A stretch of 63,685 nucleotides of DNA, counting the filler, from Collodictyon triciliatum (taxonomy: Eukaryota): NCBI GenBank assembly GCA_043381765.1. It is 13 parts of 13 records of this genome, joined end to end, with 100 filler letters (N's around TTAATTAATTAA, not from the genome) between each part and the next. Parts side by side here need not be neighbours in the genome. Positions count along the whole stretch, not along the records: positions 25,774 to 30,819 come from JBHJMP010005533.1; 12 more parts are not named here. One strand, written 5' to 3'. The notes under the pieces were generated by a model. The model was not told the DNA's origin. It made no database searches and was given only the letters and a program-made list of their open reading frames with translations. Made by a program: the position numbers and the translations under genes. Of the stretch, positions 4,600-56,270 are shown piece by piece. The number at the start of each line of letters is the position of its first letter. Positions within the stretch are counted from its first letter, which is position 1.

Positions 4600-5059
4600 T
4601 GTTTTCACTTTTAATTTGCTGTCTTTTCTTGCTTTGCTTGCTTTTCTTGTTTTCTTGTTTTCTTGTTTTCTTGCTTTTTTTCTTGCTTTTTTTCTTGCTT
4701 TTTTTCTTGCTTTTGTCTTATTTTTTCTTATTTTTTCTTATTTTTTCTTATTTTTTCTTATTTTTTCTTATTTTTTCTTATTTTTTCTTATTTTTTCTTT
4801 TTTTTATTCTTCCTTTCAATTTTGTGCAGGATGGTGTTTCTTATTTTTTCTTATTTTTTCTTATTTTTTCTTATTTTTTCTTATTTTTTCTTGATTTTTT
4901 TATTTTTTGTTTTGTTGTTTTGATGTTTTCTTGTTTTCTTGTTTTCTTGTTTTCTTGTTTTCTTGCTTTCTTGCTTTTTTTCTTGCTTTTTTTCTTGCTT
5001 TTTTTCTTGCTTTTTTTCTTGCTTTTTTTCTTGCTTTTTTTCTTGCTTTTTTTCTTGCT
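4600..5059. repeat. T-rich low-complexity tandem repeats (TTTTTTCTTA / TTTTTTCTTGC)
   Basis: Direct reading; contig end. Confidence 0.9.
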
Positions 5060-5159
5060 NNNNNNNNNNNNNNNNNNNNNNNNNNNNNNNNNNNNNNNNN
5101 NNNTTAATTAATTAANNNNNNNNNNNNNNNNNNNNNNNNNNNNNNNNNNNNNNNNNNNN
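5060..5159. other. Artificial 100-nt contig linker N..TTAATTAATTAA..N (recurs at 10216, 15370, 20524, 25674, 30820, 35968, 40997, 46140, 51282, 56426, 61565)
   Basis: Identical six-frame-stop linker embedded in Ns every ~5.1 kb. Confidence 0.98.
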
Positions 5160-5428
5160 CGCTACTCTGACCGCAAGTGAAGAGAGATGTGGGAATGTGT
5201 CGTGCGATATCTCCCGCAACATATCCAACCCCTGCTACCCACGCAACCAATCAACCAGTTGGGACGCCCTCCTGACCAGCTTGCTATCACTGATTTCTTT
5301 CCAGTGCTAGCCTCTCCACGGTAGTGTCTTCTCCTACTCGCGTTTGCTCTCACCCATGCGCACCTATCTCGCCCCTTTGTATGGCATAACCTTGCTGCAC
5401 TTTGAATCGAATAAAGACAAGAAAAAAA
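5160..5428 (+). mobile_element. 3' end/UTR of a non-LTR retrotransposon (same family as 27791-28325)
   Basis: Closely matches 28065-28325; ends TTTGAATCGAATAAAG plus an A-rich tail. Confidence 0.8.
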
Positions 5429-5607: not shown

Positions 5608-8600
5608 TCATTGTGAAAAGGGGTCAAAAGATTGTCTTTTCTTCAGATTTTTCATCTTGACCAATTTTTGCTTGATTTCGCCAATTTTGAATAGAGGAAT
5701 CACAAAAGCGATTGACGCAAAATAAAGCAGCCAGATTGAGTTCATTCCAATAAGCAGAGCTGTAATCCACGATTGCGAGTCGAAAAGAGTCGACATGAGC
5801 GAAAGGAAGAAGGACAAAAAAATAATGTAGAGGCTGGACAACTCCATCTGATTTTCGATTTTCGAGTGGTAAGGCTTATACTCTTTTTGCATCCAAATTG
5901 AGCCCTAATAGTTTGTGCTTGATTTAATATTAATTTTCAAAAATATTTCATGTATTGCACCATATAAATAAATATTTAATCGACCTGAATAACGATGATG
6001 AGAAGCACGAAGAAAACCGCTGGGCTTGTGTATGGAATGACACTGAGCACAAACGAAAAAGCGATGCGGCGTGCGATTATGACAAACTCCCAATACCTGA
6101 AGGTCTATATAACATAACTCATAAATAATTCAAAATTGATAATGGAAAAGAAAGAATATCGAATCACATACCTCTTTGTATGGCAAGTAAAGGAATCCAT
6201 ATCGCGCTCCTGGTTCGTATCCAGGTCTTTCTGCCATGATTTTCACTTTCCACAGTACAAAAGCAGGCAGACCGACCCAGATACCATTTATTCACACCTT
6301 CGTCATAAACGGTGCATCCAAAAACACCAAACACCTCTCTTGCGACCGAGTAGTATATAAAAAACAGAAGATTCAAGGTGATGAAAACAGCCTGCAATAA
6401 AATATTATTTTTTTTTTAGAATTACTAAAGATGAAGCTGAAACAAATATAAAGATTTTACAATTAGATGTATTTTTCCTCCTTACTTTGTTCTGCTTGTG
6501 TCCATATCCGAAATAGTACGTGGCTGAGCCAATAATGATAAAGATTGGTATTCTTGCAAAACTAAAAATCAGGGAAACAAACACATCGTCCACTCCAAGG
6601 ACACACGAAAGGCTGGGAAATTGAATTGAACCAATCGACGATGAGACTTCGACGAAGCTATTTGCATCTTCTGAAAGAACGATTCCACCAGCAACAATCG
6701 ACAGTGTTTGCATGTGGAACATTATTATCCTGAGTTTCGCTACAAAAAAAATATTCTGATTAATAAAGAAAGAATCAAGTGAAATAATTAGTAACATTTA
6801 CCTGATTTTGATGTCTCTGTGAAATACAGATAGCAAATGAACATAAAGAATCCAATCGAACCAAGAACCAGGGTTGAATAAATCGTTCCTTTATCGCATT
6901 TCACACATGACCTCCCTTGATTTCCGTATCCATTCTGACATTTTGAGCAGGCATTACCTTCATAACCCTCTTGACAAAGGTCTGTGATTTCGACCGTCGT
7001 ATTTGAATTCGAAATTTTCTCTGGAATCGATACATCACATGACTCGCGACGTGGACACGGCAGTATTGATTTCACAGAGGTAATGCTTGGTGAAGCATGA
7101 CAGAATTTCAAGGACGTTCCATCAAGGCAATCACATCCTCTTGGGCATTGAACGCAGTTATTTCCAAAACCGAAATATCCAGGTAAGCATTTACAAAATT
7201 CAAATCCGTAGTATTCTGGATTCAAGTCAACCTCTAACTCAATCAGACCAGATTTCGAAATAATGGAAGGACAAAGGTAGCGTTTCGTTTCGTCTTGCAG
7301 ATTGAAACTTGTTGTGAAATTCATGAAATCAGGAAGGAAATTAGCTGTTCCATGATTCATCGATGTTGTATTCAATCCCAAATACTCAAGCTTTGAAAAT
7401 CCTATGTATGATTCAGGAATGCTTTCAACAATCGGATTTCCAGTGAGGTCAAGGGAAGTCCATCTCAATAATTTTGTGAGTTCATCAAGCTTAGTGATAT
7501 TGTTATTTTTAAGATTTAATGTTTTCATGTTAAGAACATAGTCAAAAATCAACCAATTCAATTCCCCAGAGATTTCATTATCATCAAGCAAAAGGTTTTC
7601 ATAGAAATAATCGATATTGTCTGAACGAGGAACTAAGAAAACAGCAATGTCTCCTGAAAACGAGTTGTTTCTCAAGTCAATAGTAACTAGATTTGGCAGA
7701 TTCCAGAATAAATCAGGCATGCTTCCGAACAATTTATTGTGAGATAAAACGAGTGATTTCAGCTCAGGTAATTCCTGAAAATAGGCTGGGACTGTGCCTT
7801 TCATTTTGTTCCAAGACAAATCGATGTATTCAATTGAAGGCAATGACGAGTAATTGGGAACAAAGCCAGTGATTTGGTTTTCACTCACATCTAGTCTTGT
7901 CAGATTCTTCAGATTGAACACCGGTAATGAGCCTGACAACTTATTTCGGAGCAATACTATTTCCTTGATTTTTTCGCAATATTTGAAATCTGGAACATTT
8001 CCCTCCAACTGATTGTCATAAACAGAAAAAATCTCCAGTTTACGCATATTTGAGAAGTTTGGAATCGTGCCTAAAATTACTCATTAAAATTTGAGGAAAT
8101 ATGAAAATCAAAGAAATAGAAAGGGAAAATAATTAGAAATCACCATTCAATCGGTTTCTATCAAGGTAAATTCTTTCTGCATTTGAAATTCCGTTGAAGT
8201 TTGGAACGGTTCCTGTAATTTAACGTTAGTTTGTATTAATAATGCATGAAATAATAAAAACAACATACCATTTAATTGATTGCTGTAAAGATATATTATT
8301 TCAATCTTTGGAATCCTACTGAAGTTTGGAACTGTTCCTGTCATATAAAGTTAGCTTCTTTTTTATATTACATGAAAATAATAATTAAACTTGCCAGTCA
8401 ATTTATTGCTGGAAATATTAATTCCTTCAAGATTTGGAATTCCGTTAAAATTTGGAATGGTTCCTGTAATAAAAAGTTAGCTTTCATCAATAATGCATGA
8501 AATAATAATAAATCTTACCAGTTAATCGATTGCTGTCAAGAGAAATTATTAGAATACTTGAAACTCCATTAAAGTTTGGAACCGTTCCTGTAATGTAAAG

Positions 8601-10215
8601 TTAGCTTTATATATATTACATGAAAGATATAACTAAAATTTACCATTCAATTGGTTGCTGGAAAGAGAAATTCCTAAAATATTTGAAATTCCACTGAAGT
8701 TTGGAACCGTGCCTGTAATGAAAAGTTAATTAATTTTCATCAATAATACATGAAATTATTATAAAAACTTACCACCCAACTGATTTCTGTGAAGAGAAAT
8801 TATTTCAAGATTTGGAACTCCACTGAAGTTTGGAACCGTTCCTGTGGTCTTAAGTTAGTTTTGTATCAATAATACATGAAAGTATAATAAAAAAAATTAC
8901 CATTCAACTGATTGCTGTAAAGATAAATTTCTTCAACATTTGGAATTCCAATGAAGTTTGGAATGGTCCCTGTAATATAAGTTAGTCTTGTACTCATATT
9001 ACATGAAAATAATAATTTAAACTTACCAGTCAACTGATTGGTGTGAAGAGAGATATCTAAAACATTCGGAATACCACTGAAGTTTGGAATCGTTCCTGTA
9101 GTATTAAAATTAGCACTTGTATGCCATCATATTTAATTACATAGAAAACAAACCATGGACATTGCAGCTATAAATTCCAAGAATCTGAAGATTTGGCAAC
9201 GCTGAGAAATCAGGCAGAGTTCCTGAAATGGAAAAATCATTAGAATTCAGAATAAACCTTATAGGAAATCACTCCAAACCTGTAATTTTTTCACTATCGC
9301 CAATGTATAATTTCTTAAGCGACTGTATTTCAGAAAAATCTGGTATTGTTCCTTCCAATTCATTCCCATCAATCTCAATATGTTCAATATTCGGCATTCT
9401 TTGAAAGTCTGGAATCGTTCCTGTGATTCGATTCACATAGAGATTCAAAGACGTAATACTTGGGAGATTAAAGTCTGGAAGATTTCCGTAAATGGAGTTG
9501 TGGCTCATGTCCAAATAATCCAATAATTGAAACTTTTCAAAAATCGCAGAGGCAGCTTCAATGTCACCGTTAAGATTATTTTCAGTCATCCTGATTTCCA
9601 CGATAGAACATGTGTTGCTCTACAAATATAAAGGAAAATATGTTAAGAATGATATCAAAATATATTATTGTCATTTCAAGGAATACCTTATAGTCTTCAT
9701 CTGAACAGCTCTGATGACACGATATTCCATACCAATCACATATCGGAATACTTTCATTCTTCCATCCAGTGTTCCGAAACCAATTATCGCCGCCAAGTGA
9801 ACCGTAAAGTTGGACAAGCAGTTCGTATTGGGTCCCAGGATTTCCATCGGCCACATTTCGACTCTTTTCGTTCTCTAACCCTCGTTTCCTGTTTCTACTT
9901 CGTTTTGATGAATGAATTTCTTGATAAAAATCGGCCTTACTAGATGTTAATTTTCTTCCATAATTCCATTCAGCACCATGTCCATTTTCTAAAGAGTGTT
10001 CTCCATCTTTGCAGCCATTCATCAACCCTGTAAAGTTATCCTCACTCTCTTTTAACAAAGGACAGTTCTCATCGTAGTGGCTCAACAGAATTTGGAACGC
10101 ATCTTCGACTTTCATGGAAAGCAACTCATCTCTTGAATACTGGCATCTGTTTTCCTTATTTGAGTCGAAAGTGTATTTTATAAATATTCATAAATCAACA
10201 CATACCTTTGACGTG
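5608..10215 (-). CDS. LRR receptor-like protein: LRRNT cap, many 24-aa plant-type LRRs, Cys-rich region, multi-pass TM C-terminus (5' truncated)
   Basis: LYGSLGGDNW..NTGW..ICDWYGISC cap; L.L..NQL.GTVPNF LRRs; CKCLPGYFG..CVQCP, CQEGYEGNACSKC; several hydrophobic helices at 5608-6900. Confidence 0.88.
8143..9222 (-). repeat. Tandem array of ~9 units (~125 nt), each one 72-nt LRR exon plus a homologous short intron
   Basis: Recurring AAGTTTGGAACCGTTCCTGT exon edge and AAGTTAGC..ATAATGCATGAAATAAT intron core. Confidence 0.85.
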
Positions 10216-13300: not shown

Positions 13301-15369
13301 CTAATATGCATGTATCTAGTTCTGCTCAATGTGTTGATTGCTTCCAGAAGGCAGCTGCTATCAGAAAGGAGACTAAGACAATCATGTCAATGAAAGACAC
13401 CCATCAGATTGACAATATTATCCGCCTCATGAAGGACAAGAAAGAGCATGAAGCCGCCATTCAGCTTTACAAAACAGCTGCTCTTAGACATGGTGAAAAG
13501 TCATCCTATGAAAACTGGGACTGCTGGGTGGCTTGTGAGACTGCGCACCAACACTGCAAAGAGAACAAGCTGTATGAAAGTGGCGTCGCATTCTGGGCTG
13601 AGATGAGAGACAGATTCGCAGATAAACTCGGATGGATTCACCCCAGAACATTAAATTCATGCGAATACTTGTCCGTCCATTCAAATGGAATCAGAATCAA
13701 CAAAGAGCCTGTTGAGTTTACGAGAGTCAAGGAATTCATCTGTGAAACTCTTGATGATGCAAAACTGGATGAGGAATGGAATCGTGAGCAAATCATTGCG
13801 CCATTATTCAGAATTGTCTACATGTCAAAGACTGATGAAAGCAAATCAAAGGCTGCATCTGATGCAATCACACTTTTGAATTTCATGAATATTTCTTTCG
13901 GTGGAATGGATTTATCAAACATCAAAATTCCGCATGCAAATCTCAGTAACTCAATCCTTGAAGGTGCAAACTTCTCGGGTGCCAACTTGGATGGTGTTGA
14001 CTTCACGAATTCGATGCTTGGTGACTGTGTTTTTGATAATGCAAAAATGAATAGTGTGAAATTCGGAATTCCTTATGATAAATTAGAAGGTCATACATAT
14101 TCTGTCTATAGTGTTTGCGCTATTCAAGGACCGAATGGTGAAAAGTGGCTGACTTCTGGAAGTCATGATAAAACAATACGTGTTTGGGATGTAGCCACAG
14201 GAAACCAAATTAAAACACTAGAAGGTCATACAGATGCTATCAATAGTGTTTGCAATATTCAAGGACCGAATGGTGAAAACTGGTTGGCTTCTGGAAGTCG
14301 GGATAAAACAATACGTGTTTGGGATGTAGCCACAGGAAGCCAAATCAATATATTGGAAGGTCATACAGAAGGTGTCAATAGTGTTTGCAGTATTCAAGGG
14401 CCGAATGGTGAAAAGTGGCTGGCTTCTGTAAGTCGTGATAAAACAATACGTATTTGGGATGTAGCCACAGGAAACCAAATCAAAACATTAGAAGGTCATA
14501 CAAGAGAAGTTGACAGTGTTTGCAGTATTCAAGGACCGAATGGTGAAATGTGGTTGGCTTCTGGAAGTCAAGATAAAACAATACGCATTTGGGATGTAGC
14601 CTCAGGAAACCAAATCAAAACATCAAAAGGTCATACAAGCAATGTCAACAGCGTTTGCAGTATTCAAGGACCGAATGGTGAAAAGTGGCTGGCTTCTGGA
14701 AGTTTTGATAAAACAATTCGTATTTGGGATGTGGCCAAAGGAAACCAAATCAAAACATTAGAAGGTCATACAAGTTATGTCAATAGTGTTTGCAGCATTC
14801 AAGGACCGAATGGTGAAAATTGGCTGGCTTCTGGAAGTGTGGATAAAACAATACGTATTTGGGATGTAGCCTCAGGAAACCAAATCAAAACATTGGAAGG
14901 ACATACAAGCGATGTCAATTGTGTTTGCAGTATTCAAGGACCGAATGGAGAAAATTGGCTGGCTTCTGGAAGTTGGGATAAAACAATACGTATTTGGGAT
15001 GTAGCCACTGGAAATCAAATCAAAACATTGGAAGGTCATACTGAGACTGTCAAAAGTGTTTGCAGTATCCAAGGACCGAATGGTGAAAAGTGGTTGGCTT
15101 CTGGAAGTTTTGATAAAACAATACGTATTTGGGATATAGTCACAGGAAACCAAACACACAGTCTGCAAAAACTAGAAGTGACCTACACCCAAGGAAAATA
15201 CCTCGTCAAGAAAGAAAAGCCAGACGAAGTCATCGCAGTATTCAACAGAACAAGTGATGCGATGAACATGATTGACACCAACAGAATCCAAGATGCAAGG
15301 ACAGTCCAGATTATCGGCCCAAGAAAGCTGCAAGGTGGAAACATCCAAATCAAAAATGTCACGGGATTG
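10316..15369 (+). CDS. NLR-like/STAND protein fragment: post-NTPase helical region (NPHP3/TEP1-like), TPRs, pentapeptide repeats, 8 WD40 repeats; truncated at both ends
   Basis: GHPLYLRIILDEVRVFGVYEKL (G.PLYL motif after NACHT-type NTPases); TPR exons (LGAKHASVAST, LGENHPNVVAC); ANLSNSILEGANFSGANLDGVDF; LEGHT..WLASGS.DKTIRIWD x8. Confidence 0.82.
14083..15153 (+). repeat. 8 x 135-bp near-identical WD40 repeats
   Basis: 45-aa period with near-identical DNA between units. Confidence 0.95.
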
Positions 15370-17088: not shown

Positions 17089-19967
17089 TTAGTCACCGAA
17101 GGAAACGACATTGTCGCCGATGGTTTTGGCCAGAGCACTAGTTAGATACGGCTGGCGGCCAAGGCGAGCAAGCAGCTCCTGGGGGATTCTGGACGATGCA
17201 AACTCTGCCATCAAAATGCGAGCGTCGGCTTGTGTCTCCTTGTCGAGGTCTTCCGCTTCACGCAGAATCCATAGCAAATATGATACAGGTAACAACAGAT
17301 TGCAGGAGTCTGTCAACCCATCGCACCCCTCTGCACCCTTTTCTAGCGCACCTATCAAGTCTCCACACAGAAGAACTTCCATACTGAATGATGGTGAACA
17401 AACTCTGTAATTATTATTGTTATTGTTAATATTATATTTATCTATTTTTTGTTTTTGGATGAGCGTAAATGAAGAGAAAATATAAAGAAAGGAAAAAGAC
17501 GCGTTCCATATAGCAATTCTTCATTCTTATCTTCTTTGAGAGACATCGTCACGCGTTTAAACGTGATTATTTCGGATGTATTATGTGAATTGGAAAGTAG
17601 AAAGGCAAAACTTTAGGTGTTCACATACTCATCAATTCTAACCTGTTCCATTCAAGTGCGTTTGGTATTTTGAAGGTGCGGATTACACTCAGCTCTAAAT
17701 CATGTTGTGTATGGGAGGTTTCGCGATTATATGGTGTATCTGACCAGAATGAGTGTGCGCGCTGACTTGCATCTTTTTTGGCCAAGCAGAGACTATGGCG
17801 CAGGTATATCTTAACCAGAAATCGACGGAAGTACCAAAGACTCTCGTGGCTGGGATAGCGCTGAATTAAATCTGAGTTATACATGAACTCCTGTGCAAGA
17901 ATATGGGCATAATCGAAACCTAATATATTATGATTGTTAATGGTAAAATAAAAATGAGGAAAAAAAAGAAGGATGTTTGGCATTCAATTGAAAGGAGTGC
18001 AAGGTTGTTTTTTTTTCTTTTTCTTTATCTATCAAAACAAAGATAAAAAATAGTTAAAACAGTTAGTCACCATCGATGAGGCTAGACATCTTTTCAAAAA
18101 TTTTGAATCTGTAATGAAAGGCTGAATGGTCAGACACATTTTTGTTTGTCCATTCTGTGATGTTGTTCAGCTCTGTAACCAACTATATGAATTTGTTTTG
18201 TATTTAAAATGTCTGTCTTTGTAATAGTTGAGGAGGAAAGCAAAATAACACTATTATAATAAAAGATGGAAGTTAAGATATTGTGCCTGAAGACAGAGAA
18301 TCATAATCGCAATTAGTTCAATATATCTATATATGTAGATAAAAAAAAGGTGTATGGGGCACTCAGTCGTGTAGAGCTTAAATCGATGATATGTTGCTGT
18401 TTTTTTTTTCTTTAAAAATGAAAAAAAAATTATGTGAAACCCATTCACGCGAGTTCGAAATGTCCATGGTAAACAGGCGGTGAGTCCACGCGTAATAATT
18501 CCTTGGGTATGCAACGGCCACTCGGGTACAAACACTCATTTCATGGTTCAATACATCTTCCGACACCGAGGGATGATTCTTAATCAACCACTTTCTGCGT
18601 TTGGCAATNNNNNNNNNNNNNNNNNNNNNNNNNNNNNNNNNNNNNNNNNNNNNNNNNNNNNNNNNNNNNNNNNNNNNNNNNNNNNNNNNNNNNNNNNNNN
18701 NNNNNNNNNNNNNNNNNNNNNNNNNNNNNNNNNNNNNNNNNNNNNNNNNNNNNNNNNNNNNNNNNNNNNNNNNNNNNNNNNNNNNNNNNNNNNNNNNNNN
18801 NNNNNNNNNNNNNNNNNNNNNNNNNNNNNNNNNNNNNNNNNNNNNNNNNNNNNNNNNNNNNNNNNNNNNNNNNNNNNNNNNNNNNNNNNNNNNNNNNNNN
18901 NNNNNNNNNNNNNNNNNNNNNNNNNNNNNNNNNNNNNNNNNNNNNNNNNNNNNNNNNNNNNNNNNNNNNNNNNNNNNNNNNNNNNNNNNNNNNNNNNNNN
19001 NNNNNNNNNNNNNNNNNNNNNNNNNNNNNNNNNNNNNNNNNNNNNNNNNNNNNNNNNNNNNNNNNNNNNNNNNNNNNNNNNNNNNNNNNNNNNNNNNNNN
19101 NNNNNNNNNNNNNNNNNNNNNNNNNNNNNNNNNNNNNNNNNNNNNNNNNNNNNNNNNNNNNNNNNNNNNNNNNNNNNNNNNNNNNNNNNNNNNNNNNNNN
19201 NNNNNNNNNNNNNNNNNNNNNNNNNNNNNNNNNNNNNNNNNNNNNNNNNNNNNNNNNNNNNNNNNNNNNNNNNNNNNTTTTTTTTTCTGGTTTATTTTTA
19301 TATGAATCTGATAAGTTGGGATATTAAAAGAAAATACAAAGATGTGTAGATAAAGATGGGCTGCGGCTTGGGAATTTATGGAAGTCCACAGATATAATTA
19401 CCAAACTTTGGATGTTTTTTCCATTTTGTGAGAAGCATAAAGGCGTCCTTGTACAATTTCGTCAAAATGGAATATGATATACAAAGCTTGTGTTCAAAAA
19501 GTTCAAAGTCGGCCTACAAGTTATTATTATTATTATTATATTTTAAAAAAGCCAAATAAAACTTAAATCCAAACACAATATATAAAGATCCAGACACTAA
19601 TAAAAAAAAATAGCAAGACGAATTGTCTGTTATCTTCATCAAAAGAGCATGTTATATAATGATAAAGGAGAGTATACATCATAGCCCTCTTCATCTTGCA
19701 AGTTCCTTCGGAATCCAATCTCGTTCCTATATGCAACACCAAAAACAAACAAAAACTGTGAATTATACGCACTTATTATGTTTCATATATCAGAGTAGTA
19801 TATCTAAATAAAGACTGTATGATTCTCCTTGCTTGCGCTGGGGTATTCTTGTGCAGAGTGTATATACATAACACCAAAGAAAAGGCCTACACATGTGGAT
19901 CAAGAGCAAAGATCTCGTCGAGCACGTCTAACGGAGCCCCGTCCCTGCGCTTGAAGTAGCGCTGCAT
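17089..19967 (-). CDS. PTAR1: Protein prenyltransferase alpha-subunit repeat protein (PTAR1-like), multi-exon, spans a gap
   Basis: PPTA motifs YPRNYYAWTHR, SDHSAFHYR, YPSHESLWYFRRF; N-terminal LDEIFALDPHV. Confidence 0.72.
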
Positions 19968-25673: not shown

Positions 25674-26276
25674 NNNNNNNNNNNNNNNNNNNNNNNNNNN
25701 NNNNNNNNNNNNNNNNNTTAATTAATTAANNNNNNNNNNNNNNNNNNNNNNNNNNNNNNNNNNNNNNNNNNNNGACATCGGCCCTGCCACAACTGACAGC
25801 AATACTCTCTTCTATTCTCCTCTCCCAACGTTCTGTTGCCTTCTGCTCGCACTCACACTAGACCCACACAGCCCCGGGAGCACGACAAGGCCGACTTCCA
25901 GCCTACCTTCCTCCCCAAGCTGCGCTGGGCTGTGCCGCAATACACCCTCATTCAGTCAGTCGCTTCCCCCATCTGGTCGGCCCTTGCCCAGCCCAGTTGA
26001 GTGGCCGCAAACGCCTCCTTAGCTTTCTCCTCCTCATCCAACTCTTATATTTTGTTCTGGTCGTCTGCGATCTCCCTGATTTCTTTCATTTTTTTTATTT
26101 TTTTTATTTTTTTTATTTTTGTCATAAAAACGAGCTGTAGTTCAGCATTTCCCAAAATTCGTGGTGGGTGGGTTCAAGTCGTACTTCAGGTTGCGTCGCA
26201 TAAAAATGATGAAGTTAAGTAAGCAGCCGCGAGGGGAGAAGTTCTTCGCACTGTCATTCGTTTGTATGTTGTTTAA

Positions 26277-26393
26277 TAGAAGGGGTATGCCATCTTTCGA
26301 TTGGTAAACCTGGTGCGCTAGTATCCAAGGTCTCACCACTTTTTTTACAAAGATTGTGTAGTGTTGAATGCTGCCAGGAAAGACCCGACAGCC
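26277..26393 (-). ncRNA. Putative Fanzor omegaRNA scaffold / element right end, copy 1
   Basis: Immediately 3' of the Fanzor stop; aligns with 52783-52900; hairpins; similarity stops at CCCTTCTA. Confidence 0.75.
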
Positions 26394-26400
26394 TGATTTT

Positions 26401-27780
26401 TTAAAGAGAGGTGTATTTGTTTTTTTGGGTTGGGGTTAAAAGAACTTTGTTGAGTATATTTATGGCGCTGTTAAAATCCCTTGTCAAGAATACACTTTGT
26501 TTGCTTTCTAAGCGATTGCATTCTTGACATATGAGACATATATACAACTTTTTTGAATTTTCTTTCAGTGTTACATATTCCAGTTCTTTTTCGCAGTTGT
26601 AGCACATCTTGGAGGTCTAAATTCATCTACATTAACTGTTTCAAAACGTTTGGATAGTATTTTTCGTAATCCTCTTCCAATTGTCGCCATAAAATGGTTC
26701 ATTGGAGATTTTCTGCTCCAGTCTCCATGCGCCAGTACAACATCCTTGCCAAATGTCTTTTCGATTCGGTCCATAAGCAACTGTTCGCTTCTTTTTGTAT
26801 TAACATATTGTCTCCATATCATTTTCCGAAAAGTTACGTGTTCATAAAATCTGGGTAATTCTGTCCGGTATCTTGATTTCATAGATACATATTTTCGAAG
26901 TTGTTCATAATCGACCGTGCATGAATTATTTTTACTTAGTTCTGTCTCTAAATCGATTAAAGATACTCTTAATGTCTCAAACTGATAATTCTCTTCAAAA
27001 GTAATGTGACCAAAAGAAACAGCATTTTGTAAATCTGTTGCCATGCATATCCCTGAAGGATTGTACTTTTCTACTTTCTCGCGCAAGAGTATTTTGTGAT
27101 TTTTAAGAGATTTGCTATCATGTCTTATTTGGTGTGCCGTGTAACGTAATTTCTTACCTGCCTCATCCACCATGCAAACCATATTAAACTTCCCTGCGTC
27201 CACTCCAACTATTTTTTTTTTATTTTTTATTTTTTGTCGCTAATAAAGATAACTGCTCTTAGGAAAGTTCATCTATATGAACATATTCTTGGGTCTTTTG
27301 ATTATATTTGAATTTTGAATTTGAAATACCTTTCTTTTGAAAGAATAATGACACCGCCAAACCGCCTGTTTGTATCATGTATTTAAAAGTGTAGTCTCTT
27401 TGATGATAGACCCTCTTCTTCATTTCAAAGAAATCATTCCATAGTTTCTATTTGCATCCGGATATATTCTTCATTAATAATGTTTCTCAGATAATACTAA
27501 TAGATCTATCAAACATGCAGTATCTAGAGTAATATGACATGATGTATTGGTAGTTCTAATAAGGATTGGTGGAAACAGTTTGGTTCCAATGTCCTCAAAA
27601 ATGCGATTCATGTTAATCAGACATGATATGCACTTATTTTGATTAACTTTGGTGTCATATTCGATACCATTTACAATATCGCTGGGAATGATACGATGCA
27701 AATGCGTTCTAGCCCATTCCTTATGTTGTCCCGGCATTTCGAGTTTCGTGAAGATGTCTTTTTTTAACTTATGTAACTCT
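26401..27780 (-). pseudogene. Fanzor1 (TnpB-like RuvC nuclease), copy 1; frameshifted, 5' part replaced by a LINE
   Basis: VGVDAGK (RuvC-I), GDWS, VDEFR (RuvC-II, rearranged Glu), CYNC..CQEC zinc finger, TRDFNSAINI (RuvC-III). Confidence 0.88.
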
Positions 27781-27790
27781 TGCTCAAAAA

Positions 27791-28325
27791 GTGACAGAGT
27801 CTCACAAGATGCTCTCTGAGCTTGATTATGCTCCCAACCGACTCAGCGCGTCTGACATCCCGTTTGGCCCACAATACCAAATGACCCACAACTCTAGAAT
27901 ACTCTGGACAGTCACAAGGGGACATATGCTGTGGTCCTTATGGAGTGTACGCGCATTCTCTCGCTCCAATGATTCACCCGAACGAGAAATCAATGTTTAC
28001 AGGCTTGAGAGCCTCGTGCAACTCAGCTTCCTGAACAACCTGCTGAAACACGCCCGCATTCTTCGCTACTCTGACCGCAAGCGGAGAGATGTGGGAATGT
28101 GTCGTGCGATATCTCCCACAGCATATCCAACCCCCGCTACCCACGCAGCCAATCAACCAGTTTGGACGCCCACCTGACCAGCTCGCTATCACTGACTTCT
28201 TTCCGGTGCTACCCTCTCCACAATAGTGTCTTCTCTTACTCGCGTTTGCTCTTTACCATGCGCACCTATCTCGCTCCTTTGTATGGCATAACCTCGCTGC
28301 ACTTTGAATCGAATAAAGGAAAAAA
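27791..28325 (+). mobile_element. 5'-truncated L1/Tx1-like LINE (ORF2 C-terminus plus 3' UTR) abutting Fanzor copy 1
   Basis: RGHMLWSLWSVR (W..W..R ORF2 C-terminal motif); 3' UTR shared with 5160-5428; AATAAAGGAAAAAA tail. Confidence 0.75.
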
Positions 28326-28328
28326 TCT

Positions 28329-28510
28329 GATTGTGTCCTTTGTCTCTCACTGCGCTTGTTTCTCAGCAATATGAACTTTTTTTTTCGAATATTCAAGTCT
28401 TTTTTTATTGTTCCTCTGAGCCCTGTCTCTCTGTGTGATCACCACATTTATTCACGTTGTGAGTTGTAGAATACATCGGTCTTTGGGAATTTTGGCTCAC
28501 GCGAACAATG
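28329..28510 (+). repeat. Interspersed repeat B, partial copy
   Basis: Aligns to 56090-56270 (TGTGTCCTTT..GCTTGTTTCTCAGCA..TTATTGTTCCTCT..GTGTGATCACCA..CGAACAAT). Confidence 0.8.
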
Positions 28511-28699
28511 AAACATACAAAGAAACAAAGATATGGCCCAATTGTATGCTGTTTATTCGTTGATGTGGTATTGGAGTTCGTTGCTGGGGCGCTAACCTAT
28601 GTTTGCATATATGGTCAATGACTTAGGATGTTGAGAGTGGGATGCCTGCCAGTAAGATAGATATGTATATGAACGATTTTAGTATCCAGTCCGCCTCGT

Positions 28700-29160
28700 G
28701 CGGTGTTGTCAGAGTTTTGTTTGCTCGTTGATTTTCATCCACAGCACAGCCCATCTCGTGGACTGTTTGAGAGTTGAATTTCTCATATCCTCATCATTAT
28801 GCAACGGGGTGTGATGTTCGTCGAGGTAACGGGCAGTTTGGATAGAACTTACGAGGGTATCGCTCGCCTGGCAGTGCAGTGGTCGGCTGAGCAGATCGGC
28901 AGGTGAGAGCGTCTTCTTGCCTGGGTATCGATAGCACATGTTGCGCTTGGGTCAGCAGATCGAAAATTGTCTTTGAATTTATGGCTTTGTCGAAAATTGA
29001 ATCTTTTCCTTATTTGAAAAAATAACCTAATATGGGGAAGGGTCGTATAAGTCGATCGACTGCAAGTCGCCAAATATCTGTGCCTCCTGAGACCAACACG
29101 GCAGCAGCGATATTCCTCGAGGAGCAAACAGAATCTGACAAGAAGAATCAAGTATCAATC
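28700..29160 (-). mobile_element. Degenerate Ty3/Gypsy-like pol remnant (RNase H region)
   Basis: VGLRRHRYL and YRYPGKKTLSPADLLSR resemble the Y.PGK.N..AD.LSR RNase H end; frameshifted. Confidence 0.5.
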
Positions 29161-30631
29161 AGTGTGGCATATCAGAGTCTATGAAAGGTTCATGGTTATA
29201 CAGCTTTGAAATAATAGAATATATTTCCCAGAATAGGAAATGGTGTTCATCCGCTCGAACAGGTCTTCCCGTCCGTAGTACCTTCTGTGTTGACAGGCGT
29301 TGTTAGGACAAAAAGTGTTTCATGACACAAAGACACAGAGCTTAGTAGCGCAAGTTGAACTGTAGTCAAAAAATCTTCTCATAGTGATGAAAATGACTTA
29401 CATGCTTTGGTTAAATTCCAGGCAATGAGGAGTATGTGCGTGTTAGTTGTACAGACTCGCATTGAAAAGAGTGAATATTGGTGATAAATGGTCGCCTTAC
29501 TCTCTAAAATAGCAACAAATTAGCTCTTTAGATGAAATAAGTCAAGGAAAAAGATTTCTGGTAACTGATTTGAGATATAAAATTTGCTCCTATTATTAGA
29601 AATTACTGCCTAGGTTCCAGAATTAAATGGTGTTAATTTTATTGTTAATTTCAAAGAAAGAAAAGATAGACTTGAGTGATGCATGATGATAGTATTATTC
29701 ATAATTATTATCTTTCAAAAAAGATTTACAATCTAGTATCGCAGCGCCCGGCAACAATAAGCAAAATCCATCAATCAAAAGTTATAAAGAAAATACGTAG
29801 CTTTGTAGCTTGAGGTTGTAACGATGATTGATAAAAGAGAATAAATTACGTTCTTTATTATCAACCAGAAATTGAGAAACACAGCTATTTATCTATCTAA
29901 ATCCATATTTACACACGAGATAAATAGTAAACCACTTACATACTTTTAAATGGATTTTCTGGGTTAATAATTAGCGAATACATTGCAATTAAACATACAT
30001 TTAATTATAAATTAATGGCAATAATAACACTGGCACTAATATACTTACTCTCTTTGATACCAAGTCAGTTATGAATAATTTTTTTATGAATGAGTTTCGA
30101 TGTATAATAATTAAAAACGTTGATAAATATTACATCCTTTTGAATATCATAAGATTAGTAACCGCGAAACAAACAGTTTTGATGAATCAGTATTAAAAAA
30201 AAAAAGAAATGGCTTCTTACATTATTCTGTTAATTTTAAAATGGAATAGGTGATGAGGAAGTAGGGGTCTTATTGGTAATAAATAACGTTTTTCTTTTGG
30301 TCGGACATGAATGAATCCTACGGTTATCTAAAAAAGAATAAGAAACAAACATGAGAACGTCTTTTTTTGGAAGATTACTAAAATATTAGGTTTCATCCAT
30401 TTTTTTTTATCAAACTGAAAAGAGTAGAACTCGATATCCTAGTATTGAATGAGGAAATAAAAAGGAGATAACGAGGTACCTTGGATGCCTGGGGCCAAAA
30501 TAACACATTTTTAATATTTGTTTCAGTTTCATCTTCCGAAAAACATATTTCTTCTCTTGCAAATCATGCATTTAAGAATGAGACTTACATCCTTTTTATA
30601 TTTACATTATGAAAGCATGTTGGTTTGTATT

Positions 30632-30689
30632 AAGGTTCCAACTCTAATAGAGTCGAATAAAGGAAAAAAAAAAGGTTCCAACTCTAATA
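30632..30689 (+). mobile_element. Ultra-short LINE-tail insertion (30650-30671) with 18-bp TSD
   Basis: AAGGTTCCAACTCTAATA [GAGTCGAATAAAGG + A-run] AAGGTTCCAACTCTAATA. Confidence 0.8.
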
Positions 30690-30919
30690 CATATTCTTCA
30701 ATAACATAGTCTCAAACTTCAATAAAAATAAAAATAAAAATAAAAATAAAAATAAAAATAAAAATAAAAATAAAAATAAAAATAAAAATAAAAATAAAAA
30801 TAAAAATAAAAATAAAAATNNNNNNNNNNNNNNNNNNNNNNNNNNNNNNNNNNNNNNNNNNNNTTAATTAATTAANNNNNNNNNNNNNNNNNNNNNNNNN
30901 NNNNNNNNNNNNNNNNNNN

Positions 30920-31178: not shown

Positions 31179-34100
31179 GAAAAGAAGCACAGCCAGCAGA
31201 TATTGGATGCGATGGTTAAAGGTAACTTGGGAATACTCAATTTTGGTTAAATGGAATACTCTTCAAATATGGGGGGGTTTTTTTTTGTGGAGGATCATTT
31301 TCTGTTTACTTTTCACCCTCCTTTTGAATCTTTGCCCCAGTAGATGTGTTTGATTTTGAAGAAAGAGATACGAATATCCGCGCTCAATCACATAAACAAA
31401 ATATGGTGAGAAATAACATTATTTAATTCCTCCAATTATGTTATGAGTTATAAATGTCATTTGCCAATTGTTTTTTTACCTGTACATTTTTGGAGTAACA
31501 TAAATTTTATCTAAGAGAGAACAATGCTTTTCCAAGACCTCATCACCAATTAAAAAAGCAAAAACGTATGAATTTCAACTACACACCATATTAATATAAT
31601 TTTCTTCTTTAAAAAAGGTATCAGATGTGAAATTCATGTTTTTTTTAAGCTCAGCCTCCACAATATCCATCAATTACCCATAGAGAAACCGTTTCGTTGG
31701 AATCGGACTATAGAGCTAAATCACCTCGAGATAATCTGGACGATGAATATCCATTTCAAGTAGACAAATCTGATGTTTCCTCATGGAGAGGTATCACTCC
31801 AGCCAGAAAAACCTGGAGACCGAAGGCACCACTTAGAATCATTCGTGGTATCCGATATCCTGAAGCAGACTTAGAACCACCAGCTTCCACAACAGAATCT
31901 GTATCCCCACCCTCAGAAAAAGTATCACCCACCATTCAACTAAAATAATTTCTGAAATTTACTTGAACTTTCAAACCTTACTGATATTTGATTAATATAT
32001 CTGGTGAAAATAGCATGATGCCATTTCGTATTTTCTACTTTTACAGGATACGTCCAAAGTCTTATCACATAAATGTCCATTATTTTAGGTCAGTTCTCCA
32101 AAAAAGAATACCGGTGTTGTTGAAATAGAATTATCGAGTGATGAAGAGGAAACTAAGTTTCAGAAAAGAGACCACTCTCCTTTGAGGATCATGGCGGATC
32201 TCGGTTCGTTCTCCTCTGCAAGCAAAATGACTAATGAAGAAAAAGATTCTAATTCATTTTGCGAGGGTGTACCTTCTATAATGGAGTTGTTTTCGGTATC
32301 TGGTAATCACAGAAAATATACCACAGTTCTCTCTCTAAATCTGATTCAAAATTATAGAGATTTAGCTGAGCTATATTTTGAAGTGAAAGATATATTTTTA
32401 TGCCATTCACTTTCTCTCTTTCTCTCTTAAGTGTGAACAAGTTATGAGAGAATTATTGCAAATTGAAAAACATAAAAAAAAGTTATTCTTTATTTTTTGT
32501 TTTTTCTAAAAAAAATTATGAATTTTTCATTTGGAGCAGGTCAAAACTTGAGTGAAATTGACTTGGTGTTTGTACGCACATCGACATTCACAGAATCTCG
32601 CGCACACAACAAATCACTTAGATGTCAAATAATGGTTTTTATTTATTCAATCCAGTCTTTTCTTCATTTGTAATATGATGATTTTACAACCTCATTTCAA
32701 GAATTTTTTTAATCAATCATGTCTCCATTATTATTAGTTATTTGCTATTTTCAACTTTCCTTTTTTTTTTTTTTGAAATTTTAATACGGCAGGAAAATAA
32801 AATGTATATTAATACAAAACAAGAAATTGACATAAATTATTGCTTAATCAGACAAGTGGAGCAGGTAATCATACAAAGTAAAGTAATAAGTATACCATAT
32901 CACCTATATATAATTTTCTAGTTTACCCAGCAAATAATATGGTTATCTATTTGAATTGAATATATATATTTGAGACACCTGAAAAACATACTATTGCTCA
33001 CTCATTCACATAATTAGGTAGTGGACAAAGGTGTATACACGTTACTTATTAAAGTACATGATGGTAATACCTTTTTTATAAAAAAATTACAGCATTCAAT
33101 TATACTACTATCTGTCATTCAGTATCACTAATCCTCTTTCCAAAATAAAAATAATGTATGCATCTATACGTTATAAAGACAACTTTTTTTTGTAAACCCT
33201 TTCATTTTTCTATTTTCCACTATGGAATTCAACCAGTTTAATTCATATTCTCGAAAATCTAGTAGAGTTCAGCCCGTACTTTAGCATAGGCTTACTGTCA
33301 TTGCAAAATATGAGGCAGCTAGGGAGTAAATTAGGCTTGATAAAGAAGGAAAAAGGACTTTCGTTTTATTGGAATCATTTAGAATTCAACAGGTCTGTGT
33401 TATCCTTAAGAAACGAATCGTTCATCGCATCAATTATATTCCAATTTATTTAATATTTTATATTATTTGTTTGCCTCATAATTCGTCTAACAACAAACAA
33501 AAACATATAAACAAACAGTAAACTGGATTTTTTAAAATACCTGCCCGAAGAATTATCTGAAGAAGTGTCTCGATGGTGATTATCAATATTNNNNNNNNNN
33601 NNNNNNNNNNNNNNNNNNNNNNNNNNNNNNNNNNNNNNNNNNNNNNNNNNNNNNNNNNNNNNNNNNNNNNNNNNNNNNNNNNNNNNNNNNNNNNNNNNNN
33701 NNNNNNNNNNNNNNNNNNNNNNNNNNNNNNNNNNNNNNNNNNNNNNNNNNNNNNNNNNNNNNNNNNNNNNNNNNNNNNNNNNNNNNNNNNNNNNNNNNNN
33801 NNNNNNNNNNNNNNNNNNNNNNNNNNNNNNNNNNNNNNNNNNNNNNNNNNNNNNNNNNNNNNNNNNNNNNNNNNNNNNNNNNNNNNNNNNNNNNNNNNNN
33901 NNNNNNNNNNNNNNNNNNNNNNNNNNNNNNNNNNNNNNNNNNNNNNNNNNNNNNNNNNNNNNNNNNNNNNNNNNNNNNNNNNNNNNNNNNNNNNNNNNNN
34001 NNNNNNNNNNNNNNNNNNNNNNNNNNNNNNNNNNNNNNNNNNNNNNNNNNNNNNNNNNNNNNNNNNNNNNNNNNNNNNNNNNNNNNNNNNNNNNNNNNNN

Positions 34101-35665
34101 NNNNNNNNNNNNNNNNNNNNNNNNNNNNNNNNNNNNNNNNNNNNNNNNNNNNNNNNNNNNNNNNNNNNNNNNNNNNNNNNNNNNNNNNNNNNNNNNNNNN
34201 NNNNNNNNNNNNNNNNNNNNNNNNNNNNNNNNNNNNNNNNNNNNNNNNNNNNNNNNNNNNNNNNNNNNNNNNNNNNNNNNNNNNNNNNNNNNNNNNNNNN
34301 NNNNNNNNNNNNNNNNNNNNNNNNNNNNNNNNNNNNNNNNNNNNNNNNNNNNNNNNNNNNNNNNNNNNNNNNNNNNNNNNNNNNNNNNNNNNNNNNNNNN
34401 NNNNNNNNNNNNNNNNNNNNNNNNNNNNNNNNNNNNNNNNNNNNNNNNNNNNNNNNNNNNNNNNNNNATATAATATTCATTCCAGTCTTCTATGCGTAAG
34501 TTCTAGAAATAACTTCCTCTTGTACATATACCACATAGCTGAGATACACTTTCCCTAGGTTAAATTATATGTCCTTTTCTCTTTTTATCAAACAAGGAAT
34601 CATTGGACACTAGCAGTTATATGCAACCCGTTCAAAATAAAACAAAATCTATACTCGGGCATTCTATACTTTGATTCCCTGGGATGGTATTAAAAAATCT
34701 AAGTTATTTGTATCGTGTAATCACTCTTGAGGGCTGTTTCTTTTTCTCTTATTTTTGATAGGGAAATCTTAAATACCCCTTCATGTTTAGCATACCCTAT
34801 CCTCTCCATATCCTCGACCTTTTCGGTTTACTAAAACAAATTTTTTATCGTATTAGCTACGAAATTTTTGATACAGTGTGTACTGCCTTGAAAAGGTATA
34901 GCTCAAACAGATTCTCATTTTTTTTCTCCCTTGGGTGCATCAAATGGCGCCTTTTCAAATGTTTGAATTAAACGTATCGAGAGGGAATCTTGAGATTATG
35001 AGGCAATTGCACGAAGCAAAATTGTTAATTTCATCTTTCTATTTCTTCTTTATTTTGTGGCTGACCATTACAAACTTTTGAAATCAGAACATCTCGACAA
35101 AATATGTATTCAAAAACGCTCTACCATCAATTATATATATATATATTTAAAACCCAACAACCAAAGGTTTCTCACAACACAAGAAGTCAACAGCACAAAA
35201 ACAGAGGCAGAGTTGGAATGTACCAAAGTGGCAGTAAGACTCTTGTTTTCTATGAGGGGACTCATTGACCCCTAGATTAGCTAAACCATCATCATTCATT
35301 TATATTTTATTGTAGTCAAGAGTTCAGCCCTTGGGATATGAGTGTGGGACGTACGTCATAATGTTCACGGAATGCATTTTAACGCGGCTGCCAACTATCA
35401 TGATGATTGTAAGTCTCTCGCTATATTTTCAGGGTACATCACAATTGCAATCCTTTTTTGTTTTATTTTGTGTTGATAGATATTAAAGCCCAGAAAGGGC
35501 ACGTGGTTCTTTTACACGACCCTGGGTATTGAATATTAAAAAGTTACTATTGTCTCCAAAATATTGCGTTATCCAAAGACAAGTTCCGGTGAGGCGGATT
35601 TCTTCAACCGATTTCGATTCAGCGATGAGTCGTTCTGTGACAAAGAACTACGTGGCCGTGTTAAG
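31179..35665 (+). CDS. Ulp1/SENP family (C48) SUMO protease, many small exons, spans a gap; ends approximate
   Basis: Catalytic motifs in order: NHWTLAVICNPF (~34598), LYFDSLG (~34663), VQPLGYECGTYVIMF (~35322). Confidence 0.78.
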
Positions 35666-36672: not shown

Positions 36673-40656
<3,984 letters not shown>

Positions 40657-54794: not shown

Positions 54795-55786
54795 GTGAAA
54801 GCCTTTGTTTTACTTTTTCCTTTTGAAAACTACCGATTTTTCAATTTTAATAAAAAAAAAATAATTAGTCAATTAGTCATTTAATTTAAAAAAATAACTG
54901 CACAAAATCGATTTATGTAAAATTTAGCATCTGCCGAGACTCTCAAATTATGCACATTTTGGCAAACAAACACACAAAGTTTTTTTTACAAGAGAATTGA
55001 GACGAAAGGATGAGAGCCGATTCGGCGGGTTCGAAAGGACGGCCGTATAGCCATTGCGGCTGAAAGTCAACATATCGGCCCCAAACAACATGATTACCGC
55101 CGCAAGTGTGGATAGTATGCTTTTTTGGAATACATATTTGGTGGAAGGTTTATTGGGTGGGTTCTGTCTGGGCCAAGACAAAGGCTTGTTTGTATTTTTT
55201 GAATTTTAATGATAGTACATACATCAATCAAAAATAAAATATAAATTGATTATAGGAATAGAATGAGATTATTAAGTATTTTTAATCTTATTAATATATA
55301 CTAATCATACTATTGTATCATTCAGGTTCTTTATTGGATTCATCAAATTTCCTGCTTTCGTCAATCCAGATTTAATTCGATGGTTGTCTGTGCAAAAAAC
55401 AGCTACATATGGTTTCACTTCTGTTGTATAAAAAGTGTTGTGCATTGAAAGGGATAAAACCAAGTTCGTACAACCTTTGTAATGAGGTTTATCCGTTTAC
55501 AGGCTGAATGAAACCGAAGAGAAAGGAAAGGAGAAAAAGAGAAAGAGAAAAAGAGCAAAAGAAACGGATGAATGAACCAGAGCAACTGATACTGAACACT
55601 ATATTCATACTGATCTTGTTGCGCGTGAGTCGATGGCTAGAGCCCGCAGCCTTAAACCCTTTCTTCAGTAGTCTCTTGCTCTCTCACTACCCATGGGTCG
55701 ATGGCTAGACCTCGATTTGTCTTTTTTCCCTTTATTATTATCATTATCATTATTATTTATTCGTTTCAAAGAGCTCGCTCTATCTC

Positions 55787-56270
55787 ATTAGTAGGTGGTT
55801 GTACTCACGGGTCGGTGGCAGCTGGCATCTTGGTCTTCGGTGTGTCTCTGTGTATAACCTGTGTTGCAAGGGATGTGGTAAAGTGACCTTTTCGCTCTTT
55901 GCGTTGGCTTTGTCGGCCTTCTCATTTTGCGTTCGGTCAGTAGGCATTCCACGGCGCAGGGCTGCGGCGTTGGTCTCGTCCTTCTCAGGATCCCTCTTTC
56001 CGATCGCTTTTTTGTTTTTTCTTCGGCTTCAGAATGTGGCGGGTTGGGAAGAAGGAAAGAATGCCAGTTAAATAATATTACTTTCTGGAGAATGTGTCCT
56101 TTTTTCTCTCTCAGTGTGCTTGTTTCTCAGCAGTAGACTTTTTCTTGTTTTTTGCGTGGGGGTTATTGTTCCTCTCAAGTCTCTCTTGGTGTGATCACCA
56201 AATTAATTCACAGCGCGTAGCTTGAATGGATCAGCATTGTAATTTTTTTTTTTTTTCACATACGAACAAT
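55787..56270 (+). repeat. Interspersed repeat B
   Basis: Matches 50700-51150 (inverted) and 28329-28510. Confidence 0.85.

Follow-up and report, generated by a model that had tools for sequence, protein, structure and literature searches.

A probable Fanzor1 gene fossil in Collodictyon triciliatum scaffolds, truncated where a LINE landed

Copy 1, at positions 26277..27779 (minus strand) of a 63,685-base stretch of DNA from the Collodictyon triciliatum assembly GCA_043381765.1, is very probably the decayed fossil of a Fanzor1 gene, whose 5' end was lost where a long interspersed nuclear element (LINE) landed. Fanzor1 is a eukaryotic descendant of transposon-encoded TnpB, an RNA-guided endonuclease that cuts double-stranded DNA with a single RuvC domain. 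The enzyme binds an ωRNA that is transcribed at the 3' end of the locus encoding it, and guide-complementary DNA is cut beside a short target-adjacent motif (TAM). A fuller relative, copy 2, lies elsewhere in the same stretch, and these scaffolds contain, with copy 1 included, at least two and probably three copies of an element that is old and dead.

The stretch examined, called the window below, consists of 13 scaffolds of ~5.05 kb each, the last one shorter, which are separated by spacers of the form N44-TTAATTAATTAA-N44 (e.g., 5060-5159 and 25674-25773). Two extra N gaps lie inside scaffolds (18609-19277 and 33591-34467). Copy 1 is found on the scaffold at 25774-30819 and copy 2 on that at 51382-56425, in agreement with the initial annotation, which had placed two loci on different contigs. 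All copy counts given for Fanzor and for an accompanying repeat, R, are counts within this window. The two copies are made up as follows.

26277..27779, minus strand: copy 1, whole Fanzor1 remnant, a 5'-truncated pseudogene with a 3' terminal non-coding stretch (BLASTN to copy 2, family hidden Markov model, tblastn with the relatives P0152 and P0002)
27474..27803, minus strand: first open segment, frame 1, REC/WED-like middle of the protein (model positions 162 to ~265; P0152 alignment from residue 160)
26571..27239, minus strand: 222-residue open segment with the RuvC-I Asp, a 34-residue insert, a helical region, the GDW strand and the relocated Glu (phmmer, AF2, Foldseek)
26401..26616, minus strand: 71-residue open segment in another frame, with a CxxC...CxxCxxC zinc finger and RuvC-III TRDFNSAINI (codons, Pfam, P0152 alignment)
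26277..26400, minus strand: 3' terminal stretch as far as the repeat boundary, predicted to form four hairpins; candidate remnant of an ωRNA scaffold (folding against shuffles)
52783..54794, minus strand: copy 2, near full-length Fanzor1 pseudogene with start MKKRKR at 54794 (model positions 4-598; six in-frame stops)

Fanzor1 identity and the rearranged RuvC site

The 222-residue open reading frame (ORF; 26571-27239) opens with ...KKKIVGVDAGKFN and closes with ...VNVDEFRPP. Compared with the PDB by phmmer, it gave four matches at E<=10, the best three of which were Fanzor1 proteins: SpuFz1 of Spizellomyces punctatus (3.7e-5), PpFz1 of Parasitella parasitica (6.8e-5), and GtFz1 of Guillardia theta (0.058). 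A HMMER pass through 1.84 billion representative proteins returned 1326 relatives at E<=1e-3, of which 489 reached E<=1e-10 and 6 reached E<=1e-30; many are 590-690 residues long. The closest full-length representative, P0002 (634 residues), matches SpuFz1 over its whole length (9.2e-37). Another relative, P0152, is intact at 648 residues and 65% identical over 91% of the ORF; it matches GtFz1, PpFz1, and SpuFz1 at 2.1e-28 to 3.7e-23, and carries the motifs DPGK, GDW, NEF, and RDFN. The 71-residue segment, which reads TSKMCYNCEKELEY...CLICQECNRLESKQSVFLTRDFNSAINI, is 62.7% identical to residues 558-616 of P0152.

The predicted fold points the same way. An AF2 model of the ORF, built from a 60-sequence alignment, reached a pLDDT of 81.6 and a pTM of 0.72, and a Foldseek search of the PDB with this model placed Fanzor1 entries at ranks 1-7 (3.4e-9 to 9.1e-6), followed from rank 8 down by Cas12o, Cas12f, and TnpB. 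SpuFz1 (PDB 8GKH), GtFz1, and PpFz1 are therefore the best matches by both sequence and fold, although the solved proteins share only ~17-19% identity with the modelled part of copy 1.

The residues of the active site and zinc finger were located codon by codon, with the positions in SpuFz1 numbered after allowing for the fusion of its chain to maltose-binding protein, which offsets the HMMER alignments by 394.

27198-27200, minus strand: RuvC-I Asp, D14 in VGVDAGK (GAC); codon checked, aligns to SpuFz1 D383
26724-26726, minus strand: Gly (G172) at the canonical RuvC-II Glu position, in AHGDWS; codon checked, aligned to SpuFz1 GDWS
26622-26624, minus strand: relocated catalytic Glu, E206 in VNVDEF; codon checked, aligns to SpuFz1 E541
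26476-26478, minus strand: RuvC-III Asp in TRDFNSAINI; codon checked, corresponds to SpuFz1 D606 via P0002
26602-26604, 26593-26595, 26536-26538, 26527-26529, 26518-26520, minus strand: the five Cys of CYNC...CLICQEC; codons checked

Excerpts of Saito et al. (PMC10432273) give D383, N385, E541, and D606 as the Mg2+ ligands of SpuFz1, and according to excerpts of Jiang et al. (PMC10530073), Fanzors carry Pro or Gly in place of the canonical RuvC-II Glu, with a conserved replacement Glu ~45 residues downstream. In copy 1, G172 and E206 are spaced 34 residues apart. E206 is invariant (60 of 60 aligned sequences), and D14, G172, W174, and the R-D-x-N motif are conserved at >=90% in the same alignment. 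The RuvC-I Asp, the Gly of GDW, the relocated Glu, and the RuvC-III Asp of copy 1 thus have counterparts in the solved Fanzor1 proteins, with which its putative zinc finger can also be aligned. The D (VDAG), E (VDEF), D (RDFN), and CxxC..CxxC finger listed in the initial annotation were thus all recovered, and its choice of the VDEF glutamate as the catalytic one is borne out. Its description of the triad as intact is correct residue by residue, but the residues are spread over two frames of a broken, truncated gene: D14 and E206 share one frame and the RuvC-III Asp lies in another, split off by a 1-nt deletion.

The Fanzor1 identity of copy 1 is supported by sequence, by predicted fold, and by the diagnostic rearrangement of the RuvC site. 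The same RuvC and zinc-finger core, with the same relocated Glu, is described in excerpts of PMC10530073 for Cas12f and for those TnpB proteins of IS200/IS605 and IS607 that have a rearranged RuvC ("TnpB2"); these, however, are much shorter prokaryotic proteins, accompanied by TnpA.

A 34-residue insert between RuvC-I and the helical region (27070-26970 in copy 1, 53585-53480 in copy 2) marks a subfamily here, unlike SpuFz1, GtFz1, and PpFz1. It is encoded by P0152, P0001, and P0020 and absent from P0002 and most relatives, and model confidence is low within it (pLDDT 50-59, residues 61-90). With its GT...AG ends, the stretch was considered as a retained in-frame intron; this was rejected, as P0152, P0001, and P0020 encode the same stretch as protein. 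Two short predicted peptides in the representatives library, P0020 and P0025, are 75-77% identical to copy 1. The tail of P0025 is unlike that of P0152 and looks by eye like a shifted frame, which hints at further decayed copies in public data.

Decay of the two copies

Within the window, BLASTN aligned 26277-27766 with 52783-54255 at 83.3% identity over 1504 columns, both on the minus strand, which agrees with the earlier description of copy 1 as collinear with copy 2 but clearly diverged. A family hidden Markov model, made from 58 of the 150 listed relatives (560-720 residues) and run on the three minus-strand frames, placed positions 162-595 of 633 on 27803..26419 of copy 1, in four frame blocks, and positions 4-598 on 54785..52912 of copy 2, in five. 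The N-terminal ~160 residues are gone from copy 1. Copy 2 still tracks intact P0152 to residue 642 of 648, and its N-terminus (54794-54777) reads MKKRKR, the same as P0152 (MKKRKRQ...); this basic stretch, which is gone from copy 1, resembles the nuclear localisation signals that are reported for Fanzors in excerpts of PMC10530073. Of the extent first proposed for copy 1, 26401..27780, the upper end stands, but the repeat and the original frame reach below 26401, down to the homology boundary at 26277.

Relative to copy 2 and P0152, the reading frame of copy 1 is disrupted at seven sites.

27482..27483, minus strand: +2 nt (AC), frameshift private to copy 1 and outside any run (pairwise alignment; copy 2 is in the P0152 frame)
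27448..27450, minus strand: nonsense TAG, GAG in copy 2 (codon comparison)
27259..27261, minus strand: nonsense TAA, GCA in copy 2 (codon comparison)
27222..27237, minus strand: +16 nt, A-rich, frameshift just upstream of RuvC-I (pairwise alignment, frame change)
26616..26617, minus strand: -1 nt in a short C-run (CC; CCC in copy 2), leaving the Glu in a different frame from zinc finger and RuvC-III (alignment, frame change)
26430..26433, minus strand: +4 nt, CCAA (pairwise alignment)
26394, minus strand: +1 nt in an A-run (pairwise alignment)

Together, the insertions at 26430-26433 and 26394 shift the frame of the last ~25 residues. Copy 2 has separate defects, six in-frame stops and five or more changes of frame, and no disabling mutation is common to both copies. 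Copy 2 also lacks the relocated Glu, with VNGL (GGA at 53128-53130) in place of VDEF/VNEF; judged by its codons, copy 2 is catalytically more damaged than copy 1, though fuller.

The differences between the copies show little sign of constraint. They fall on codon positions 1, 2, and 3 in the numbers 60, 74, and 59, with the third-position excess absent, and dN/dS is 0.81 (439 codons; pS 0.170, pN 0.141), where the gap between pS and pN amounts to ~1.1 standard errors by arithmetic on the substitution counts. The pattern is that of neutral drift, as read from these substitutions, of two sequences after copying from an intact gene. On its sequence, copy 1 is a pseudogene and cannot make a nuclease.

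It is highly improbable that the organism has an intact gene whose frameshifts stem from homopolymer errors during sequencing or assembly. The scaffolds are small and have N gaps, and four of the five frameshifting indels of copy 1 do lie in runs or low-complexity sequence (27222-27237, 26616/26617, 26430-26433, and 26394), as against the earlier statement that the frameshifts are mostly in homopolymers. The 2-nt insertion at 27482-27483 lies outside runs, and there are two nonsense codons besides, TAG at 27448-27450 and TAA at 27259-27261. Treating the frameshifts as read errors does not rescue the gene, because the nonsense codons, the non-homopolymer indel, and the neutral substitution pattern would remain. 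The 16-nt insertion is moreover atypical of a homopolymer miscount, and a LINE fragment stands in place of the first ~160 codons.

The LINE fragment, repeat R, and the ends of the element

At the 5' side of copy 1, DNA homology to copy 2 ends at 27766, Fanzor protein homology ends at ~27775-27785, and LINE homology on the plus strand begins at 27779, in good agreement with the end at ~27780 given in the initial annotation. The LINE and R sequences of the window are the following.

27780..28328, plus strand: 5'-truncated, decayed LINE-like 3' fragment with the ORF2 C-terminal tail, 3' untranslated region, and a short A-rich end (P0151 alignment, second 3' end copy)
5160..5427, plus strand: another copy of the LINE 3' end, truncated where its scaffold starts (90.7% identical to 28064-28325)
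55716..56211, unstranded: repeat R, ~500 bp, on the copy 2 scaffold; probably forms the 5' terminus of the same element (matches two other R copies)
28329..28455, unstranded: R remnant, the last ~125 bp, beside copy 1 (72% to 56090-56211; three-way alignment)
50778..51215, unstranded: third R copy, inverted, on the scaffold at 46240-51281 (77.5% identical to 55716-56211)

A word-indexed search with the plus-strand ORF 27752-28174 found a relative, P0151 (253 residues; E 3.6e-28). Positions 27779-28090 align with its residues 101-206 at 55% identity, directly past its zf-RVT (reverse-transcriptase zinc finger) domain (residues 43-105, E 8.5e-9), and after a frame break 28179-28211 aligns with residues 237-247. 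The zf-RVT domain marks the ORF2 tails of plant LINEs. Both copies of the LINE 3' end finish at ...GAATCGAATAAAG, followed by A-rich sequence. The 3' end common to both copies, the A-rich tail, and the start within an ORF identify the fragment, on good though indirect evidence, as the decayed extreme C-terminal tail of a P0151-like protein from a 5'-truncated element lacking long terminal repeats (a non-LTR element). The opposite-strand LINE reported earlier is supported in this indirect way. The G+C content of the fragment is 0.503, compared with 0.345 for the Fanzor part and 0.351 for the surrounding scaffold. On the last scaffold, 62833-63006 shows weak similarity to the zf-RVT part of P0151 (E 0.006, 41% over 63 residues) and is possibly another decayed LINE fragment.

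Past the LINE fragment, the Fanzor 5' coding part was not found in copy 1, as had been claimed, but homology to the copy 2 scaffold does restart: 28329-28455 aligns with 56090-56211 (72% over 132 columns, E ~1e-11). Compared with the layout of copy 2, 1.83 kb is missing (54256-56089 in copy 2 coordinates). Since homology restarts ~1.8 kb further upstream, a deletion would have accompanied the LINE or come after it; the earlier claim that copy 1 was decapitated by a LINE is right in that the truncation lies at the LINE, but more than mere insertion was involved. Loss of target DNA can accompany the insertion of a LINE. The fragment resembles 5'-truncated LINE insertions with target-site deletion in its ORF2 tail, 3' untranslated region, A-rich end, and the ~1.8 kb of target that is gone, and differs from a typical LINE in the absence of a reverse-transcriptase domain. 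No target-site duplication was seen at the LINE, though none was looked for systematically; an insertion that removed target DNA would not be expected to leave one.

All three R copies lose similarity at one common point. In copy 2, ~900 bp separate R from the Fanzor start codon (54794) downstream. The third copy heads towards a scaffold end, into a poly-A/T tract. Its neighbour is an EMP70-family gene (ORFs 46851-47348 and 49613-50134, minus strand), with the 5' exon ~650 bp away, and the assembled part of this scaffold may stop just short of a third Fanzor copy. Within the AT-rich spacer between the copy 2 start and R there is a G+C-rich patch flanked by T-runs (54990-55200), for which no Rfam, tRNA, or Pfam match was found.

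It is somewhat unlikely, though worth keeping in mind, that R (55716-56211, 28329-28455, 50778-51215) is an independent repeat and that copy 1 lost its 5' part for unrelated reasons. At 72-77.5% identity, R has diverged further than the coding part (83%), no other place in the window matches the 900 bp that separate R from the Fanzor start in copy 2, and where R occurs on the scaffold at 46240-51281 the scaffold ends with no Fanzor visible. Yet R lies 5' of Fanzor in the same orientation at both of the two loci that show both, and in copy 1 it begins exactly at the LINE 3' end.

Flanking sequences beyond 26277/52783 and beyond ~28455/56211 are unrelated between the copies. Together with the lack of a common disabling mutation, this fits separate insertions of once-intact copies, as far as the sequences allow one to judge, and sustains the view of copy 1 as a second independent insertion. 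The alternative that both copies descend from one old insertion by segmental or other non-transpositional duplication would account for the lack of terminal inverted repeats, target-site duplications, and a transposase, and for two changes that the copies have in common (the DAGK motif and the loss of Arg 38, described below). We consider it unlikely, as homology ends sharply at either end of each copy and the sequence beyond is unrelated (for 503 and 1401 bp past the 3' ends and for 2364 and 214 bp past the 5' ends), a third R fragment stops at the same terminus on a third scaffold, and with no common disabling mutation the duplicated unit must still have been intact.

Taken as separate insertions, the copies suggest the following history. 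The ancestral element would have been at least ~3.4 kb long, according to the layout of copy 2 (52783 to ~56211), with a gene of ~650 codons for a protein with the basic N-terminus MKKRKR and a ~1.4-kb upstream region ending in R, and without detectable terminal inverted repeats or a transposase of its own. It would have inserted as an intact gene at several loci, because the two copies share no disabling mutation, after which each copy would have decayed neutrally. Copy 1 would formerly have been complete; today only the LINE fragment stands between Fanzor codon ~160 and the terminal 125 bp of R. The ~160 codons at the start of the gene, together with the promoter side and the greater part of R, would have been lost by a target deletion associated with retrotransposition or by a later deletion. 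The element would once have had RNA-guided activity, R would have been part of it, and events would have taken this order.

Evidence weighing against the proposed reading

Several results weigh against copy 1 as the remnant of a mobile Fanzor1 element. Scans of its open fragments with Pfam and NCBIfam gave nothing above cut-off. The best Pfam match was Cas12f1-like_TNB, at 18.2 bits (E=0.0027) and below the cut-off of 26.3; the Cas12f TNB match in NCBIfam was likewise weak (E 0.013). Among 11 full-length relatives scanned with Cas12f1-like_TNB, P0006 and P0011 reach the cut-off and P0022 falls at most 1 bit short. Pfam and NCBIfam alone would have missed the Fanzor1 identity of copy 1. Word-indexed protein searches gave best matches of 65% and 59% identity, one each, and no near-identical protein. 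In both copies, Ala stands at a position that is Pro in at least 90% of relatives (DPGK to DAGK), and a near-invariant Arg (Arg 38) is lost; the local founder gene may already have been impaired. The LINE, too, lacks direct confirmation by domain, as the plus-strand ORF 27752-28174 had zero Pfam matches and no reverse-transcriptase domain.

Local alignment of the termini gave no sign of terminal inverted repeats: those of copy 2 score 14, where shuffles average 14.25 and 198 of 300 do as well, and those of copy 1 score 12 (reached by 294 of 300); among the 25 inverted repeats listed of 218 and of 116, there were only low-complexity pairs. No transposase domain was found in the scanned ORFs, the upstream region, or elsewhere on both scaffolds, nor in 10 further ORFs scanned with Pfam, of which six lie in the copy 2 upstream region, and no target-site duplication of the Fanzor element was evident by eye. 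The window holds two Fanzor copies only. The earlier claim of a multi-copy mobile family is thus upheld as far as two copies and one R fragment go, but found no backing from inverted repeats or a transposase, and it is solely from repetition with sharp ends that we infer mobility.

Support for an ωRNA is mixed. The last ~125 nt fold with a z of -2.92 in copy 2 (2 of 200 shuffles) and -0.47 in copy 1 (55 of 200), so that only copy 2 folds better than shuffles. Conservation of the 3' stretch is not above that of the coding part (104 of 123 bases the same in both copies, 84.6%, versus 85.8%), and one of 33 pairs in the predicted hairpins is compensatory. Rfam gave 0 matches at gathering score over the whole window and 0 at E<=1 over 52700-56425, and a tRNA scan found 0 genes. 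In position and predicted shape, the 3' stretch fits an ωRNA remnant, and we regard it as a candidate.

The weak Cas12f TNB similarity (Pfam E 0.0027, NCBIfam 0.013) and the Cas12f and TnpB structures from Foldseek rank 8 down could be taken to mean that copy 1 is a Fanzor2, or a prokaryotic TnpB/Cas12 relative present, for instance, as contamination. This is almost certainly not so: the significant PDB sequence matches and the top seven structures are all Fanzor1, the size of ~650 residues with a long N-terminal region agrees with Fanzor1 relatives, and a search for P0152 in 185,579 prokaryotic genomes left none confirmed of 53 pattern matches. The neighbours in the window, a LINE tail and plant-type genes, are eukaryotic as well.

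Relatives, surroundings, and significance

A possible link to viruses comes from P0152. Its nearest large ESM Atlas clusters, a feature-based comparison (score 0.99) that serves as a lead only, are 92-100% viral and consist mostly of Nucleocytoviricota "transposases" of 618-656 residues with DUF8286 (PF26935). P0152 itself bears a precomputed PF26935 label, although our own scan of P0152 with a local Pfam copy gave no PF26935. Fanzor1 is known in giant viruses, according to excerpts of PMC10432273. That the copies are a fragment of an endogenised giant-virus (Nucleocytoviricota) genome instead of a cellular transposon is nevertheless quite improbable. There are no viral hallmark domains, nor viral genes near the Fanzor copies, in the ORFs scanned on the two scaffolds; the unit is short and repeated, with the same ends at three loci; and the G+C content of the Fanzor part (0.345) is close to that of the surrounding scaffold (0.351).

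Known Fanzor1 systems offer parallels for a multi-copy element. Excerpts of PMC10432273 describe Fanzor1 of S. punctatus as multi-copy with partial copies, as here (42 loci, 19 of them full-length), and the GtFz1 loci of G. theta as likewise without inverted repeats and transposase. The SpuFz1 copies are, however, well conserved and have 30-nt inverted repeats, whereas the copies here are dead and without such repeats. Fanzor1 has already been reported, in excerpts of PMC10530073 and PMC10432273, for Chlorophyta and Streptophyta, multi-copy in its hosts. KnFNuc of Klebsormidium nitens and CrFNuc-1 of Chlamydomonas reinhardtii are examples of such plant and green-algal Fanzor1 proteins. A literature search for "Fanzor1" in land plants or Viridiplantae found no Fanzor paper, though the topic may still be in print.

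A broader and more speculative proposal joins these strands. A Fanzor1 lineage would be common to Nucleocytoviricota and the host here, a probable land plant or streptophyte; it would have been transferred from virus to plant or by a viral vector, with a burst of transposition to follow that needed neither its own transposase nor inverted repeats, and P0152 would be a still-active RNA-guided nuclease of the plant lineage. We give this as an outside chance.

The other scaffolds carry plant-type domains according to Pfam (DIOX_N with 2OG-FeII_Oxy, a leucine-rich-repeat protein, EMP70, and ATP-synt_ab), with a weak LRRNT_2 match on an ORF neighbouring that of the leucine-rich-repeat protein. They would suggest a plant or streptophyte as host. 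Three host genes were assigned in this way.

3561-4604, minus strand: 2OG-Fe(II) oxygenase gene with DIOX_N
6791-8080, minus strand: leucine-rich-repeat protein
38271-39470, minus strand: split exons of an ATP synthase alpha/beta-family gene

Three tandem-repeat arrays, at 8127-9121, 14078-15154, and 42983-43836, have 75-88% identity and periods of ~125, 135, and 45 bp, inferred from self-BLAST offsets. Beside copy 2, 258 bp from its right end, lies a Ser/Pro/Lys-rich open frame of 333 residues (51527-52525, plus strand), for which a Pfam scan gave zero matches.

As eukaryotic counterparts of TnpB and Cas12, Fanzor1 nucleases are under development as compact genome editors, and their natural history in plants is thinly described. 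The locus reported here is non-functional and leaves the general picture unchanged; for annotation, it is best masked as a transposon-derived pseudogene, with no genes called from its open fragments. P0152, which is intact, could be a useful protein. What copy 1 and copy 2 provide is a documented and datable fossil: two independently decayed copies of a Fanzor1 gene, one of them cut where a LINE landed.

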